This document shows positions 48,180 to 55,414 of a stretch of 64,000 nt of DNA, one piece after another. A model generated the notes under the pieces. It saw only the letters and a program-made list of their open reading frames with translations. It was not told the DNA's origin and ran no database searches. Source of the DNA: Mobula hypostoma (lineage: Eukaryota); NCBI RefSeq assembly GCF_963921235.1, contig NC_086107.1:100442001-100506000 (forward strand). The letters run 5' to 3'. A program made the position numbers and the translations under genes. Every line of letters begins with the position of its first letter. The stretch's first letter is position 1.

Positions 48180-49464
48180 ATCTAGATTATGATGATGACC
48201 CATGCATAGAACATAGAACAATACAGTACAGGAACAGGCCCTTCAGCCCGCAATGTTGTGCTGAACCAGCTAAAAATGCAAATCTGAAACACCCAAACAC
48301 TGATCCCACCTACCTATACATTGCCCATATCCCTCCATCTTCCTCACATTCACGTGCCTATCTAAAAGTCTCTTTAAAGCCTCTAATGTATTTGCCACGT
48401 GCCTATCTAAAAGTCTCTTTAAAGCCTCTAATGTATTTGCCTCTACCACCACACCAGGCAGCACATTCCAGGCATCCACCACCCTCAGAGTTAAAAACTT
48501 ACCCCTCACATCCCCTTTGAACCTACCCCCTCTCACCTTCAATGCATCCCCTAGGTATCAGACATTTCAACCCAGGGAAACGGATACTCCCTGTCTACTC
48601 TATCTATGCCTCTCATAATTTTATAAAGCTCTTTCAGATCTCCCCTCAGCCCCACTGCTCCAGAGAAAACAACCCAAGTTTGTCCAGCCACTCATGATTG
48701 CACCTGCCCTCTAAACCAGGCAGCATCCTGGCAAACCTCTTCTGCACCTTCTCCAGAGCCTCAACATCCTTCTTTTAGTGGGGTGACCAGAACTGTACAC
48801 AATACTCCAGATGTGGCCACACCAGAGTTTTATAAAGTGCAGCATAATCTCTTGACTTTCGAACTCAGTGCCTTGACTAATAAAAACAAGCATTCCATAA
48901 GCTTTCTTAGCCACCCTATAGACCTGTGTAGCAACTTTCAAGGAACTGTGAACTTGGATCCCAAGATCTCTTTGCTCAGCAACACTGTTAAGGATCTTGC
49001 CCTTAATAGTGTACTGTCTCCTTACGTTTGCTTTACCAAGGTGCACCAACTCATATTTATCTGGGTTAAATTCCACCTGCCATTTCTTTGCTCATATCTG
49101 CAAGGGGAGAGAAGGAGAAGATGGCGGGATACAGCACGTGCGGCTGCTCCAAAATGATATCGCATTTGTATGTAGGTACCGTGCACAATCCTGATTTGAT
49201 GGAGACAGATGTGAGAAGCACGGAGGAACATCTGGAGAAACTTCTGAAATGCCCGCTTCGCTGCCGCTGCTACTGTGCAATTAAGAATCTCCGGAGGGGA
49301 AGGCCCCAAATCCTTGGCTTTGCCTATTGCCTGTTGCTGGGGCCGGGGTCGAAGCCCTTGGCAGAGATGGTGCTCGGTGCTCAGTGTCGGAGGGCTGGTC
49401 GGACGCTCGAAGTTTTCGGACAGACTCAAGAGTCGGCTGTGGTCGGGTGCTTCCAGGATGCTGC

Positions 49465-49694
49465 TGAAGCACCTTCAATTACTCCAAAAGACTGAGGTTT
49501 GGTAAAAATACTGAAAGGCTTTTATTCGCTGTACAATACGACCTCCACAGTGAGTGTCTGCCCCCGGACTGAGGGGGAGGGGCAAGACGCACACCTTTAT
49601 ACAGGACTCTGTGGGAGGAGCCACAGGGGCAGTCAGCAGAGGGGTGTGTCCAGACAGGTAACCGAGTTACAACATATATACATGATTTACCACA
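49465..49694 (-). repeat. Gypsy 3' LTR
   Basis: Direct repeat of 53714-53943 with one A/G difference (49685 vs 53934). Preceded in sense by PPT AAAAAAAAGGAGGGGTGAA. Confidence 0.95.
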
Positions 49695-49764
49695 TTCACC
49701 CCTCCTTTTTTTTAAAAAGAGTCCTGCGGGGTAAAGTGACTGACAATATTTACAAGAAGTATAT

Positions 49765-52700
49765 TTACAGGTTAAGTCTATCAGGCGGTCGAGTCCGTCG
49801 CTGTGATCGACGTAGCACCGGCGGTGATTGCACCGGCGATGGCGGTTGTGCTGGCTCCGGCCTGACTTCAGGTGCCAGCACGTTAGGCGTCGGTAATCCC
49901 TCGTGCGTGTACGTCACGCCCGGTATGGGAGTGTGGTGTGGTGTCTGTATAGGGTTTGGGGTGCACAGTGTCTCGTAGGTACATAAATTGGTGGGTATGG
50001 GGTCAATAGTCACCACGGAGTGTTCAGGGTAGGGGCCCGGAGCTCCTGCGGGCGCCAGGTCGCGGATGGAGACCGTGTCCTCCCGCCCATCAGGTAAAAC
50101 CACGTAGGCATACTGGGGGTTCGCATGAAGTAAGTGAACCCTTTCGACTATCGGCGAGTATTTATTGCTCCTCGCATGTTTCCGGAGCAGCACTGGCCCC
50201 GGGAACGTCAGCCAAAATGGTAGGGTGGTTCCAGTGGTTGATCTTCTGGGAAAAGAAAAGAGCCGCTCATGAGGGGTGGCATTGGTGGCTGTGCATAACA
50301 GGGAGCGGATGGAGTGGAGTGCCTCGGGAAGGACCTCCTGCCAGTGGGAGACCGGCAGTCCCTTTGACCTGAGGGCTAAGAGTGTGGCTTTCCACACTGT
50401 GCCATTCTCCTTCTCTACCTGTCCATTCCCCCGGGGATTATAGCTCGTGGTCCTACTGGTTGCAATTCCCCTAGCCAGTAGATATTGGCGCAGCTCGTCA
50501 CTCATAAACGAGGACCCTCTGTCACTGTGGATATAGCACGGGTATCCGAACAGAGTGAAGAGCTTGCACAGGGCTTTTATAACTGACGTGGTAGTGGTGT
50601 CGGGGCAGGGGATGGCGAAGGGGAACCGCAAGTACTCGTCGATAACGTTAAGAAAGTACACATTGCGGTCGGTGGAGGGAAGGGGGCCCTTAAAGTCAAC
50701 ACTCAGTCGCTCAAAGGGTCGGGTGGCCTTGATGAGTGGTGCCTTTTCGGGTCGGTAGAAGTGCGGTTTGCACTCTGCGCAGACTTGGCAGTCCCTGGTC
50801 ATCATCCTGATCTCCTCAAGGGAGTAAGGCAGGTTCCGGGCTTTCACGAAGTGGAAAAGCCGGGTGACTCCCGGGTGGCAAAGGTCTACATGTAGGTCAT
50901 ATAGCCGGTCGATCTGCGCGCTGGCGCATGTTCCCCGGGATAGGGCATCGGAGGGCTCGTTGAGCTTCCCAGGCCTGTACATGATGTCATAGTTGTAGGT
51001 GGAGAGTTCGATTCTCCACCTCAGAATTTTATCATTTTTGATTTTGCTCCACTGCTGATTATTAAACATGAATGCGACTGAACGCTGGTCAGTTAGCAGG
51101 GTGAACCTTTTGCTGGCAAGATAGTGCCTCCAGTGCCTTATAGCTTCCACTATGGCCCGGGCCTCTTTCTCTACCGCAGAGTGCCGAATTTCAGGGCCTT
51201 GAAGGGTACGGGAGAAGAACGCCACTGGTCTTCCTGCCTGGTTGAGGGTAGCAGCCAGCGCAAAGTCGGAGGCGTCACTCTCTACTTGGAAGGGAATGGC
51301 CTCATCCACCGCATGCATTGCTGCTTTGGCAATGTCCCCTTTTATGCGGTTGAAGGCCGCGTGGGCCTCGGCAGAGAGGGGGAATGTGGTGGACTTGACC
51401 AGGGGGCGGGCCTTGTCTGCATAGTTAGAGATCCATTGGGCGTAATATGAAAAGAAGCCCAGGCACCCTTTGAGGGCTCTGAGGGTATTGGGAAGAGGGA
51501 GTTCCAACAAGGGGCGCATACGGTCGGGGTCAGGGCCAATGACTCCATTCTCCACGACACACCCAAGGATAGCAAGTCGGGTGGTCCCAAATACACACTT
51601 GTCCTTGTTATAGGTGAGGTTGAAAGATTTGGCCGCTTGGAGAAATTTTTGGAGGTTGTTGTCGTGATCCTGCTGGTCGTGACCGCAGATCGTGATGTTA
51701 TCCAGATATGGGAACGTGGCCTTCAGTTGGCACTGGTCCACCATCCGGTCCATTGCCCTCTGGAAGACAGATACACCATTCGTGACACCAAAGGGGACGC
51801 GCAGGAATTGATAAAGCCTGCCGTCCACCTCGAAGGCAGTGTAAGGGCGGTCCTCCCGGCGGATGGGGAGCTGATGGTAAGCGGATTTTAGGTCTATGGT
51901 CGAGTACACCTTGTACTGTGCTATCTGATTGACCATATCCGCGATGCGGGGTAGAGGGTACGCGTCAAGCTGCGTGAACCTATTTAGGGTCTGGCTATAG
52001 TCCACGACCATCCTATTCTTCTCCCCGTTCCGAACAACCACCACCTGCACCCTCCAAGGACTTGTGCTTGCCTCAATGACCCCCTCCCTGAGCAGCCACT
52101 ACACCTCCGACTTAATGAAAGCTCTGTCCCCCGCGCTGTACCTCCTGCTTTTAGTTGCCACGGGTTTACAGTCGGGGGTCAGGTTGGCGAACAGCGGTGG
52201 GGGAGGGATCCTGAGGGTGGAGAGGCCGCAAGTGGTGTCGGTAGTGCGGCAGTTGGCATGATGTTGGGTGGGATGCGCGGGTCAGTGTGTGTGTGTGTGG
52301 TCAGTAGCGGGGTACGTGACATATCTCTACAAAACAGGGGATTTATGACAGTAATTGGCGGGAGGGGCCCATCATACTTCATTGTCACGCTTTTCAGGTG
52401 GCTCTGGAAGTCCGACCCCAACAGCACAGGGGCACACAGTTGAGGCAAGACCAGTAACGTAAAGTCCCGATATTCTGTGCCCTGCACCACTAGTGTCGCT
52501 ACACAACCCCCCCGGATGTCTGTTGTATGCGACCTGGAGGCCATGGTGACCCTCCGACTTACCGGCCGTATCATGAATCCACAATGCTGCACCATGGCCG
52601 GGTGGATAAAACTCTTCGTGCTGCCTGTGTCAAACAGGCAGCTTGTCCTGTGCCCCTCCACCAGGATGTCCATCATTGACCTTGCGAGCTGGTGGGGAGC

Positions 52701-53687
52701 GCTTTGGTCGAGGGTCACGGAAGCCAGGGTGGGGTCGCTGTCTTGGTCCGGCGTGGTGGGGTGCCCCGTGAGCACCCGTTGGTCGTAGGCGGTGGGAGGT
52801 GGCGCCGACCAAGATGGCCGCCCCCATGTCTCGCACGTGGTGGTGGTGTGCAGGAAAGATGGCGGCCCCCATGTCTCGCACGTGGTGGCAGTGTGCAGGG
52901 AAGATGGCGGCCCCCATGTCTCGCACGTGGCGCTGCTCGATCCCGCTCGCGGTTTGGACTTACAGACCTTGGCGAAGTGGCCCTTCTTTCCGCAGCTGGA
53001 GCAGGTAGCTTGTCGGGCCAGGCAGCGTTTCCGGGGGTGCTTCTCCAGTCCGCAGAAGTAGCACTTCGCGGACTCACGACTGGCTGCAGCCGAGGTCGAT
53101 TCGCCGGCAGGTTGCGGGGTCTGCGGCACCCACGAGGCCATCGGAGGATCGCGTGCCTAGAGAGCCTCGGAGTTATGCAGAGCGGCCTCCAACGTATCAG
53201 CCAGCTCCATCACCGAATTTAGGGTAAGAGTGGCTTTTTCCAGCAGCTGCTGGCGTACGTACACTGACCTGGTTCCCGTGACGAAGGCGTCTCTCACTAG
53301 GAGTTCGGCATGCTGCGCCACCGTCAGCTCCTGGCAATTGCAGGCCCGCACAAGTGTCTGTAGGGCCCGGAGAAACTCAGCACTCGATTCTCCGGACCGT
53401 TGTTGCCGTGTCGCTAAGCGATGCCGAGCATAGACGCTGTTTATCGGCCGCAGGTATTGACTTTTGAGTGCGTTCATCGCGCCGTTGTAGTTCGGCTGGT
53501 CTCTCATCAGCGAATAAACCCGTGGACTGACCCTGGAGAGTAGAACCCTGCGCTTCGCTACGGGGTCGGTCGCTTTAATCTCCTCTAGATACACTTCGAA
53601 GCAGGCCAGCCAGAGTTCGAAAGCGTTTCCAGCGTCAGGCATTTGCGGATGGAGGACTAATTTTTCTGGTCTCAGGACCCGTTCCAT
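49765..53687 (-). pseudogene. Gypsy gag-pol polyprotein with two in-frame TAG stops and one frameshift
   Basis: Gag from ATG 53687, TAG at 53159-53157, then the same frame continues to Zn knuckles CYFCGLEKHPRKRC and CSSCGKKGHFAKVC and protease LFDTGS. A -1 frame change occurs near 52300-52250, then TAG at 52101-52099. RT (IDLKSAYHQ, VPFGVTNG, YLDN), RNase H (ESDAS, EKEA, TDQ) and integrase (H-H-CQVC, VDFKGP, HSDRG, VEKEN) follow. Confidence 0.93.
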
Positions 53688-53713
53688 GTATTAAAATGTA
53701 CAGCGAATAAAAT

Positions 53714-53943
53714 TGAAGCACCTTCAATTACTCCAAAAGACTGAGGTTTGGTAAAAATACTGAAAGGCTTTTATTCGCTGTACAATACGACCTCCACAGT
53801 GAGTGTCTGCCCCCGGACTGAGGGGGAGGGGCAAGACGCACACCTTTATACAGGACTCTGTGGGAGGAGCCACAGGGGCAGTCAGCAGAGGGGTGTGTCC
53901 AGACAGGTAACCGAGTTACAACATATATACATGGTTTACCACA
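53714..53943 (-). repeat. Gypsy 5' LTR
   Basis: Sense TGTGG...CTTCA. TATAAA at 53850-53845, Inr-like TCAGTC at 53821-53816, AATAAA at about 53775-53770. Confidence 0.95.
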
Positions 53944-55414
53944 GCTGCATCGGTAAGTTTGCGGCGCTGGAAGCTCATGGCAGGGAGAGTTTTTCTTCCT
54001 TCTACCGTCTGCGTAAGATGATGGGACTTTCGAGAGACTTTGAGACTTTTTTTTACTGTGCCCATGGTCTGTTCTTTATCAAATTACGGTATTGCTTTGC
54101 ACAGTTGTAACTATATGTTATAATTATGTGGTTTTTGTCAGTTTTTTTAGTCTTGGTTTGTCTTGTGTTTCTGTGATATCATACTGGAGGAACATTGTAT
54201 CATTTCTTAATGCATGCATTACTAAATGACAATAAAAGAGGACTGCGTGTCCTCATAATCTAAAACAAAAACTGATCTATATCGCACTGTATTCTTTGCT
54301 GGTCTTCTACGCTATCCACAGCTCCACCAATCTTGGCAACACCCACAAACTTACTAATCCACCCATCTACAATTTCATCCAGGGTCATTTATATACATCA
54401 CAAATAGCAGAGGTCCAAGCACAGATCCCTGCACAACACCACTAATTACAGACCTCCAGCTTGAACAAGTCCCTTCAGCTACTACCCCCTGTCTTCTATG
54501 CGCAAGCCAGTTCTGAATCCAATTCGTCGCGGACCCCATGCATCTTCATCTTCTGTTAAGCCAAAGTGCTCCCGCTCAATCACTAGCACACTCCGTCAAT
54601 GGCCACTCCTTTTTGTTGATGGTTGTGAGTCTGTGAAATTTTGTCTGAATGGTCTCAGCAAACAACTGCAGTGTATTTTGTAAATGTAATCTTTGACAGA
54701 GAAAGTGATTGTACTAGATGGGTTGCTAAACAAGCTGGCAGCTTTGTCTTGAATATTATTGGAGCTGGGCACATCTGAACAAGTGGACAATATTCCATCA
54801 TACTTGTATATTTTAGATAGTGAAACAACTTTGGGACACTTAACACTCTGACCTACTTTTGTAATCACAGTATTTATGTGGCTAGTCCATTTGTATTTCT
54901 GGGCATCGGTGAACCTCAAGATGTTGAATGTGGGGGACTCAGCAATGAAAATGCTATTGATCATCAATAGTAGATAGTTGGACACCCTCACATTGGAGAT
55001 TGTCATTCCCGGCACATGAGGCACCAAGAATTCTTGCCTTTCATTAGGTCATGGTTGAATCTTGTTGCACTGGACTCCTTAGTTTTTTGAGGAGTTGTAA
55101 ATAAAATTGACCATTGTACAGTCATCAGAAAACATACTAATTTCTAACCTCACCTTAAGTGAAAGGAATGGAAATATTTCTTCTCTCATCAAGCTTTCAG
55201 TCATGCAGTCACCTTTCTGATTTGTGTCATAAGTTAAGCTTGCTATCCAGAAAGCTGCTTATGAGGGTTTGGAAAATCAACGCAATAAAGTAATTTATGC
55301 ATATCGGTGTAACCAGGAAACAGACACTCAGTGGACTTTGATGGTTCTAATCAGGTTTGTTTATTGGTGATTTTAGTGCTAAGTTACTCTGGCATGTACA
55401 GTACTATGCAGAAT

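Follow-up and report, generated by a model that had tools for sequence, protein, structure and literature searches.

A Ty3/gypsy retrotransposon in Mobula hypostoma probably primes reverse transcription with a segment of its own LTR

The window, by which we mean the whole stretch of 64,000 nt from Mobula hypostoma that was analysed (NC_086107.1, positions 100,442,001 to 100,506,000), carries on its minus strand a Ty3/gypsy (Metaviridae) element. The assignment follows from LTRs of the TG...CA type, a target site duplication (TSD), a polypurine tract and the domain order PR-RT-RNaseH-IN. The open reading frames match the Pfam families gag-asp_proteas, RVT_1, RT_RNaseH and rve, and Ty3 Gag-Pol is the best solved relative of the Pol protein (E 6e-53). 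The following features were located:

53943-49465, minus strand: Ty3/gypsy element of 4479 bp, from the direct repeat and reading
53944..53948 (5′ side) and 49460-49464, minus strand: TSD GCAGC, read in the window, with the empty site in contigs of other runs
53714..53943, minus strand: 5′ LTR of 230 nt, TG...CA, direct repeat with 49465-49694
53844..53850, minus strand: TATAAAG motif, a motif match
53821-53815, minus strand: initiator (Inr) match TCAGTCC with its A at 53819, a perfect motif match 31 nt downstream of the TATA motif
53769..53784 (5′ LTR) and 49520-49535 (3′ LTR), minus strand: proposed self-primer segment TGTACAGCGAATAAAA, an exact match, at the homologous place in 21 families
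53720..53768, minus strand: possible pair of GCCUUU (53768-53763) with GAAGGU (53725-53720), present in the predicted fold
53697..53712, minus strand: proposed primer binding site (PBS) TTTTATTCGCTGTACA, perfect complement of the LTR segment, 1 nt (A, 53713) past the LTR
53157..53687, minus strand: gag N-terminal ORF of 176 aa, ended by an in-frame stop, fitting the gag N-terminal profile of the relatives
52179..53141, minus strand: ORF with two CCHC zinc knuckles and an aspartic protease, in the frame of gag
49765..52011, minus strand: RT-RNaseH-integrase ORF of 748 aa, in a frame other than that of gag, RT motif C being YLDN
53157-53159, about 52180-52340 and 52099-52101, minus strand: defects of this copy, from comparison with single-ORF relatives
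49695..49713, minus strand: polypurine tract AAAAAAAAGGAGGGGTGAA, abutting the 3′ LTR on its upstream side
49465..49694, minus strand: 3′ LTR of 230 nt, differing from the 5′ LTR at LTR position 10 only

Both LTRs were read in the window and differ at 1 of 230 positions. Compared with relatives that bear a single ORF, the copy shows a stop after gag, a frame change before RT and a stop upstream of the RT ORF. A copy with such defects tells, taken alone, nothing about function. As the defects are present despite LTRs that differ at 1 of 230 positions, the source RNA was probably defective already, and the copy was probably either copied from such an RNA or mobilised as one. The empty site is documented by joints in contigs of other runs, which skip 4484 nt and restore an uninterrupted repeat. 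The element lies in a very high-copy repeat (flanks 49300-49460 and 53969-54100), and the summed contig depth amounts to 8,000-46,000 in these flanks compared with 50-500 within the element.

In the 3.48-Gb host genome a first look with one query gave at least 1861 candidate copies. The 30 best copies of the window family are 96-98% identical, and some family copies contain open frames of up to 1342 aa. All 30 copies possess the LTR/PBS arrangement described below and the LTRs in the window are almost identical, from which we conclude that the family is young, very abundant and has recently been active with this same arrangement, as judged from the copies. When sister families were sought in the host genome with the window Pol and shark protein queries, both matched the same family only, at 93-100% and 70-74% identity, respectively. 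A search of viral contigs for relatives of the window element yielded none.

Read on the minus strand, the 5′ LTR ends with ...GGTGCTTCA at 53714 and is followed by a single A (53713) and then by TTTTATTCGCTGTACA (53712-53697), so that the sequence after the LTR, A TTTTATTCGCTGTACA, is not a tRNA-type PBS beginning with TGG. These 16 nt form a perfect complement to the LTR segment, which terminates in AATAAAA and contains an AATAAA hexamer at 53775-53770. A preliminary description of this DNA had already pointed to a 16-nt complement of the element's own LTR, also present in the 3′ LTR, and exact matching confirms it; reading the sequence bears out that one A follows ...GCTTCA and that the gag ATG (53687) stands 10 nt past the end of the PBS. 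The TATA (53850) and the Inr near 53819 that it had named were found as well, at a distance of 31 nt. The 16-mer has three exact matches in the window, the chance expectation being 0.02, and none of 100 shuffled sequences reached three. A predicted RNA fold of 53825-53680 has a minimum free energy of -46 kcal/mol (z -4.64), a stability attained by none of 200 shuffles, and the 16-bp duplex appears in both the minimum-energy and the centroid structure. Both arms are kept in 30 of 30 family copies examined, scattered single changes aside; these copies diverge by just 2-4% and thus offer no power for covariation within the window family. A published criterion for predicted self-priming, given in a passage of PMC6317226, is a complement of at least 10 bp between the 5′ LTR and a site 0-5 bp past the LTR. 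The window element has 16 nt at offset 1.

For comparison across families, relatives were collected with the Pol protein. Close named relatives occur in rays and sharks, with 95%, 77-85% and 79% identity to the window Pol, and a sea anemone and ~4-kb contigs from environmental assemblies contributed hundreds more at 55-65% identity. An alignment of 22 Pol proteins (A1) was used to fetch 80 metagenome loci and 8 loci on contigs labelled as bacterial metagenome-assembled genomes (MAGs). Relatives in which both LTRs are present are 3.8-4.4 kb long, with LTRs of ~150-220 nt. In the eight MAG-labelled loci (L111-L118), whose contigs bear labels such as Hyphomicrobiales, Rubritalea, Ekhidna and Metamycoplasmataceae, the gypsy elements are of animal type and either complete or partial; most likely they are host DNA that was binned into MAGs.

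The relatives were analysed in two passes. The first, anchored on LTR pairs, covered 31 loci, and 18 of them showed a complement of 10-19 nt between the bases after the LTR and a segment of the LTR. In 17 of these 18 loci the complement begins 0-2 nt past the LTR end, in the remaining one 4 nt past it. Most of the 13 misses turned out to be false LTR pairs, namely 127-nt assembly overlaps, unrelated repeats and circularly permuted contigs, whose end repeats fall in coding sequence. The second pass was anchored on the start of gag by means of a gag N-terminus profile and comprised 37 loci, i.e. the window and 36 relatives; relatives with a recognisable gag start have 44-67% Pol identity. Here the 53 nt preceding the ATG were compared with the upstream 350 nt or the 3′ LTR, and the longest exact complement was recorded. 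A perfect complement of at least 12 nt was found in 30 of the 37 loci. Compared with the longest match in 100 shuffles, the observed match was longer in 27 loci, equal in 3 and shorter in 7; in AT-rich loci the shuffles reach 12-14 nt. Below 12 nt we found L083 and L084 (11 bp with one G.U), L089 (11 nt), L094 (8+4 bp with an interruption), L058 (a decayed copy whose site carries a deletion) and L044, whose contig cuts the LTR. In L045 a 14-nt pair was spotted by eye outside the automated range. In L041 a match of 12 nt exists with the 3′ LTR alone, and it is no longer than those in its AT-rich shuffles. The last bases of the primer segment (...ATAGCTCATTAA) are precisely where the L041 contig (4046 nt) stops, and it starts with the bases that would follow; this break may be an assembly accident.

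Covariation was assessed in an alignment (A2) with one representative for each of 21 distinct families, in which a row consists of the 17 nt up to the LTR arm's 3′ terminus, the loop and 17 nt from the start of the PBS. Near-duplicates were left out (L031, L033, L053, L056, L064, L065, L089, L091, L092, L099 and L115), as were L041 and five loci that failed the automated test without being near-duplicates (L044, L058, L083, L084 and L094). Standard pairs occupy 90.8% of the 357 cells, compared with 64.2% after shuffling and 31-47% when the partner is slid by 1-3 columns. Changes on both sides are seen in 16 of the 17 pairs of the helix, the covariation score is 0.671 compared with 0.171, and on none of the five measures does one of 500 shuffles come up to the alignment. 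All 21 families have Watson-Crick pairs at the inner 12 positions, and pairing is almost purely Watson-Crick throughout, with G.U in a single family. The percentage of paired cells and the absence of G.U are partly built in, because the anchors of A2 were picked by exact complementarity; this choice does not account for the fact that such different sequences occur at one fixed place. That diversity is illustrated by the LTR arms of the window (TGTACAGCGAATAAAA), L032 (TGATTCTAAGCTGTTAAAA), L038 (ATTTCTAGTCGAATAAA), L042 (GTTTACGCGTAATAAA), L104 (TCTTTTGCTGAATAAA), L118 (TAGTTTTGTTGGGTAAA) and L100 (ATTAAGTTTTGAAGA). A single compensated difference separates L088 (CAAGTTTATTAAA) from L090 (CAAGTTGATTAAA), and likewise L035 from L037. 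On this comparative evidence we regard the pairing as real and functional, neither a product of chance nor private to the copy in the window. The test that the preliminary description had proposed, whether the PBS and the LTR segment covary in relatives while staying complementary, thus gave a positive answer. Its claim that the element has no tRNA primer site is borne out by the missing TGG together with the covariation in about 21 divergent families, and the same covariation strongly supports its suggestion that a segment of the element's own LTR pairs at the PBS position in the manner of a minus-strand primer.

The comparison also reveals the anatomy of the conserved unit. The primer segment measures 10-19 nt across the 21 families (16 nt in the window), and its last bases are UAAA or UAAAA in 19 of them; the endings are AATAAA in nine families, ATTAAA in four, GTTAAA in four, TTTAAA in one and GGTAAA in one, while L061 and L100 have a segment without such an ending. 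RCC follows the segment directly in 18 of 21 families. Then comes a loop of 24-68 nt that closes with the LTR terminus (...ACA or ...TCA), followed by 0-2 spacer bases, the PBS, which starts with TTTA or TTTTA in 19 of 21 families, and, 0-50 nt further on, the gag ATG. Right after the segment, 15 of the 21 families carry a motif pair RCCU...AGGU that can form a small stem next to the candidate cut site. Both halves of this pair are conserved in sequence, without covariation, and the stem is no better than those of shuffled loops in any family.

Taken together, we consider it likely that this Ty3/gypsy element primes itself and that the 16 nt past the 5′ LTR serve as its primer binding site. 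On this view the LTR segment UGUACAGCGAAUAAAA of the genomic RNA would fold back onto the site one base past U5, or alternatively pair with it in trans from a co-packaged RNA. A cut would then be made where the duplex has its 3′ end, at the conserved junction ...UAAA|RCC, by analogy with Tf1 perhaps by the element's own RNase H, and the new 3′-OH would be extended through U5. In the window this predicts a primer RNA whose 3′ end, ...GAAUAAAA, is joined to DNA that starts opposite 53713. The 10-30 nt that separate the cut from the poly(A) site are present again in the 3′ copy, and it is there that the strong-stop DNA would be transferred. Since the primer would be copied back during plus-strand synthesis, the PBS would be rewritten from the LTR segment in every cycle and the two arms would drift together while remaining perfectly complementary; the near-absence of wobble pairs fits such recopying. 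The end of the LTR repeat is set by the point at which minus-strand DNA synthesis starts. In family after family the complement lies 0-2 nt past the LTR boundary, just as the 3′ end of a primer would leave it. Most likely self-priming is a property of the whole compact animal clade without a chromodomain and is not limited to the window copy.

Other explanations of the complementarity have to be weighed against self-priming. A chance inverted repeat would be easiest to obtain in the AT-rich relatives, where shuffles attain the lengths given above, but the three matches in the window against 0.02 expected, the 27 of 37 loci that exceed their shuffles and the covariation in A2 (0/500) speak against it, and the comparative data refute this explanation, to which we give practically no credence. 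A host tRNA, a tRNA fragment or another host RNA might be the primer, the match to the LTR being secondary. Priming by half-tRNAs does occur in other elements according to a passage of PMC6317226, but here the site varies among about 21 families in very different hosts and always matches the LTR of the same element; such variation in step with the LTR is beyond what a conserved host RNA could account for. TGG is also missing from the site, and in a weak test limited to 9 distinct tRNA-Lys(TTT) sequences (35 aragorn calls in the fetched loci) the longest complement to the PBS region was 4 nt. We therefore hold a host primer to be very improbable. Somewhat less remote, if still improbable, is that the duplex serves as a regulatory RNA structure only, acting in poly(A) occlusion, gag translation or packaging and dimerisation, and that some other primer is used. 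The strongly predicted stem, the distance of only 0-50 nt between the PBS arm and the gag ATG and the AATAAA or ATTAAA ending of the segment in 13 of 21 families would all suit such a role. However, the canonical signal is missing from the segment in the other 8 families, the 3′ arm starts 0-2 nt past the LTR boundary in 17 of 18 loci, where the 3′ end of a minus-strand primer sets it, and the window offers no alternative PBS (TGG...). Pairing that is so nearly pure Watson-Crick is expected for a PBS copied from its primer and less so for a mere stem. As a separate observation, near-identical tRNA-Lys(TTT) genes stand densely arrayed on contig C90 of G000, at about 4.02-4.33 Mb (L125-L148).

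A further alternative concerns the position of the primer within the transcript and leaves self-priming itself in place. In the window the TATAAAG and the perfect Inr stand at the canonical spacing of 31 nt and predict +1 at 53819; on the basis of these motifs, transcription may well start at about 53819, 35 nt upstream of the segment, which would then lie at +36 to +51 as the preliminary description had put forward, and the primer would carry a 5′ tail of 35 nt, a proposal that we favour only tentatively. Contigs of 4 runs across 49300-54100 are short pieces that showed no starts or ends of molecules. The alternative is the ordinary geometry of Tf1, in which transcription starts at 53784 or within 1-2 bases of it and the segment is the 5′ end of the RNA; the upstream TATA and Inr would then be coincidental or serve another start. 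It has precedents, as the first 11 nt of Tf1 pair with its PBS and Tj1 is treated alike (passages in PMC4600332). It also agrees with the observation that a TATA and Inr pair at the right spacing is found in only 1 of 21 families, the window's own: the other 20 lack it and show Inr-like matches at scattered distances from the segment, so that no conserved upstream start is visible. Against it stand the window motifs, the lack of an Inr match at 53784 and the 5′ limit of the complement, which varies from 10 to 19 nt among close relatives, unlike a fixed RNA end. We regard a start at the segment as conceivable but doubtful, and other arrangements or the absence of self-priming as less likely still. 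Self-priming from the LTR segment would work with either start, since whatever lies upstream of the cut is provided again by the 3′ LTR copy after strand transfer, and this makes an internal primer feasible. Priming by a trimmed 3′ copy of R is no more than a possibility.

The location of the segment raises the question of the poly(A) signal. A search for poly(A)-tailed contigs among the 88 related loci found none. The segment itself closes with AATAAA or ATTAAA in 13 families and lacks a canonical hexamer in the other 8, and L037 and L034 have a separate AATAAA or ATTAAA in the loop. As the PBS partner exists in the 5′ copy only, the duplex could hide the signal at the 5′ end alone, which appears plausible from the arrangement, though not as a universal feature of the families. 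In HIV-1 the 5′ poly(A) signal is hidden by RNA structure. Like HIV-1, the window element has a poly(A) signal in R that would have to go unused at the 5′ end but serve at the 3′ end, and here the PBS partner stands beside the 5′ copy only; unlike in HIV-1, the hiding structure would be the predicted duplex of primer and PBS itself. The most far-reaching version of the proposal is a widespread clade, from marine invertebrates to rays and sharks, that lacks a chromodomain, has an RT with YLDN and is primed internally by the R/poly(A)-signal segment with a capped RNA of ~50 nt, unlike Tf1 with its first 11 bases. As a whole we rate this version as speculative and rather unlikely. If it were true, one duplex would have three tasks, namely to make the primer, to define the U5 boundary and to keep the poly(A) signal of the 5′ copy silent.

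How does this arrangement compare with known systems? Passages of PMC4600332 set out that self-priming is established for the Schizosaccharomyces pombe elements Tf1 and Tf2 and that Tj1 of S. japonicus was put to a designed test for it; in Tf1, according to a passage of PMC7175516, the PBS pairs with the first 11 bases, and the cleavage by RNase H falls between bases 11 and 12. In common with Tf1, Tf2 and Tj1, the window element has no tRNA PBS and carries in the 5′ LTR region a segment complementary to a site just past the LTR. Release of the primer by a cut at the end of the duplex is proposed here by analogy with Tf1, and a further stem beside the duplex, RCCU...AGGU, is possible. A U5-IR-like stem in Tf1 is said to have been reported by Lin and Levin in 1998. 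Several traits differ from Tf1: the duplex is longer, with 10-19 bp (16 in the window) compared with 11, most families have a poly(A) signal at the end of the primer segment, YLDN stands in RT motif C, and the promoter motifs of the window, taken as motifs only, would place the segment 35 nt inside the transcript instead of at its first base.

Beyond yeast, passages of PMC6317226 predict self-priming for the Tf1/sushi group 'from yeast and vertebrates', for the Tcn1 clade in mosses and for TAR copia elements in plants, and PMC3601003 speaks of 'several chromoviruses'; chromoviruses make up the published Ty3/gypsy cases. The complementarity between LTR and PBS found here is of the same kind as in the Tf1/sushi, Tcn1 and TAR copia elements, and vertebrates are among the hosts. 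A Tf1/sushi group of vertebrates was reportedly described by Butler et al. in 2001. No chromodomain was detected by Pfam in the window Pol, nor is there one among the precomputed Pfam domains of the 120 homologues listed, and by this mark the clade falls outside the Tf1/sushi group, for which self-priming is known. The mean LTR length in sushi is 572 nt (Table 1 of PMC3601003), whereas the elements studied here combine LTRs of 150-230 nt and a total length of about 4.0-4.5 kb with the lack of a chromodomain, unlike sushi chromoviruses. More similar by description are the Mag A and Mag C/SURL elements, for which sections of PMC3601003 give mean LTR lengths of 174-213 nt and the motifs TGTT... 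and ...ACAACA, and for Mag A 'a clear AATAAA signal but no conserved TATA-box'. These sections do not mention complementarity between the AATAAA region and the PBS of Mag elements. The likeness in LTR length, terminal motifs and an AATAAA mostly without TATA is one of description, and the name Mag-type is best taken as a lead for placing the clade.

Self-priming is, to our knowledge, regarded as peculiar to Tf1/sushi chromoviruses and a few plant lineages. In the literature that we searched, a scope that did not extend to Butler et al. 2001, the primary Tf1 papers or Repbase, there was no account of self-priming in a non-chromoviral animal gypsy clade. Judged from the sequence comparisons, the arrangement is most likely Tf1-type self-priming outside the chromoviruses and without a chromodomain, i.e. 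a new version of a known mechanism, and it points to a very abundant self-priming animal clade outside that group. The about 21 independent versions of primer and PBS amount to a natural mutational series. Such a series could be used to ask what the cut site needs, the conserved junction UAAA|RCC being a candidate, whether a self-primer must consist of the first bases of the RNA and whether priming and control of the poly(A) signal are coupled. A self-priming clade also bears on the proposal, made in the discussion of PMC3601003, that LTR elements used hairpin priming before tRNA priming. In annotation, the clade will be misjudged by LTR finders that require a tRNA PBS.

A last observation concerns the reverse transcriptase. 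At residues 102-105 of the Pol ORF (49765-52011, minus strand) motif C reads YLDN and not YXDD. YLDN is shared by 21 of the 22 aligned proteins in A1, the remaining one having YLDD, and aligns with the YLDD of Ty3. A literature search for 'YLDN' combined with reverse transcriptase and retrotransposon found no paper. As the window family has clearly been active, its RT must work with Asn in place of the second catalytic Asp.
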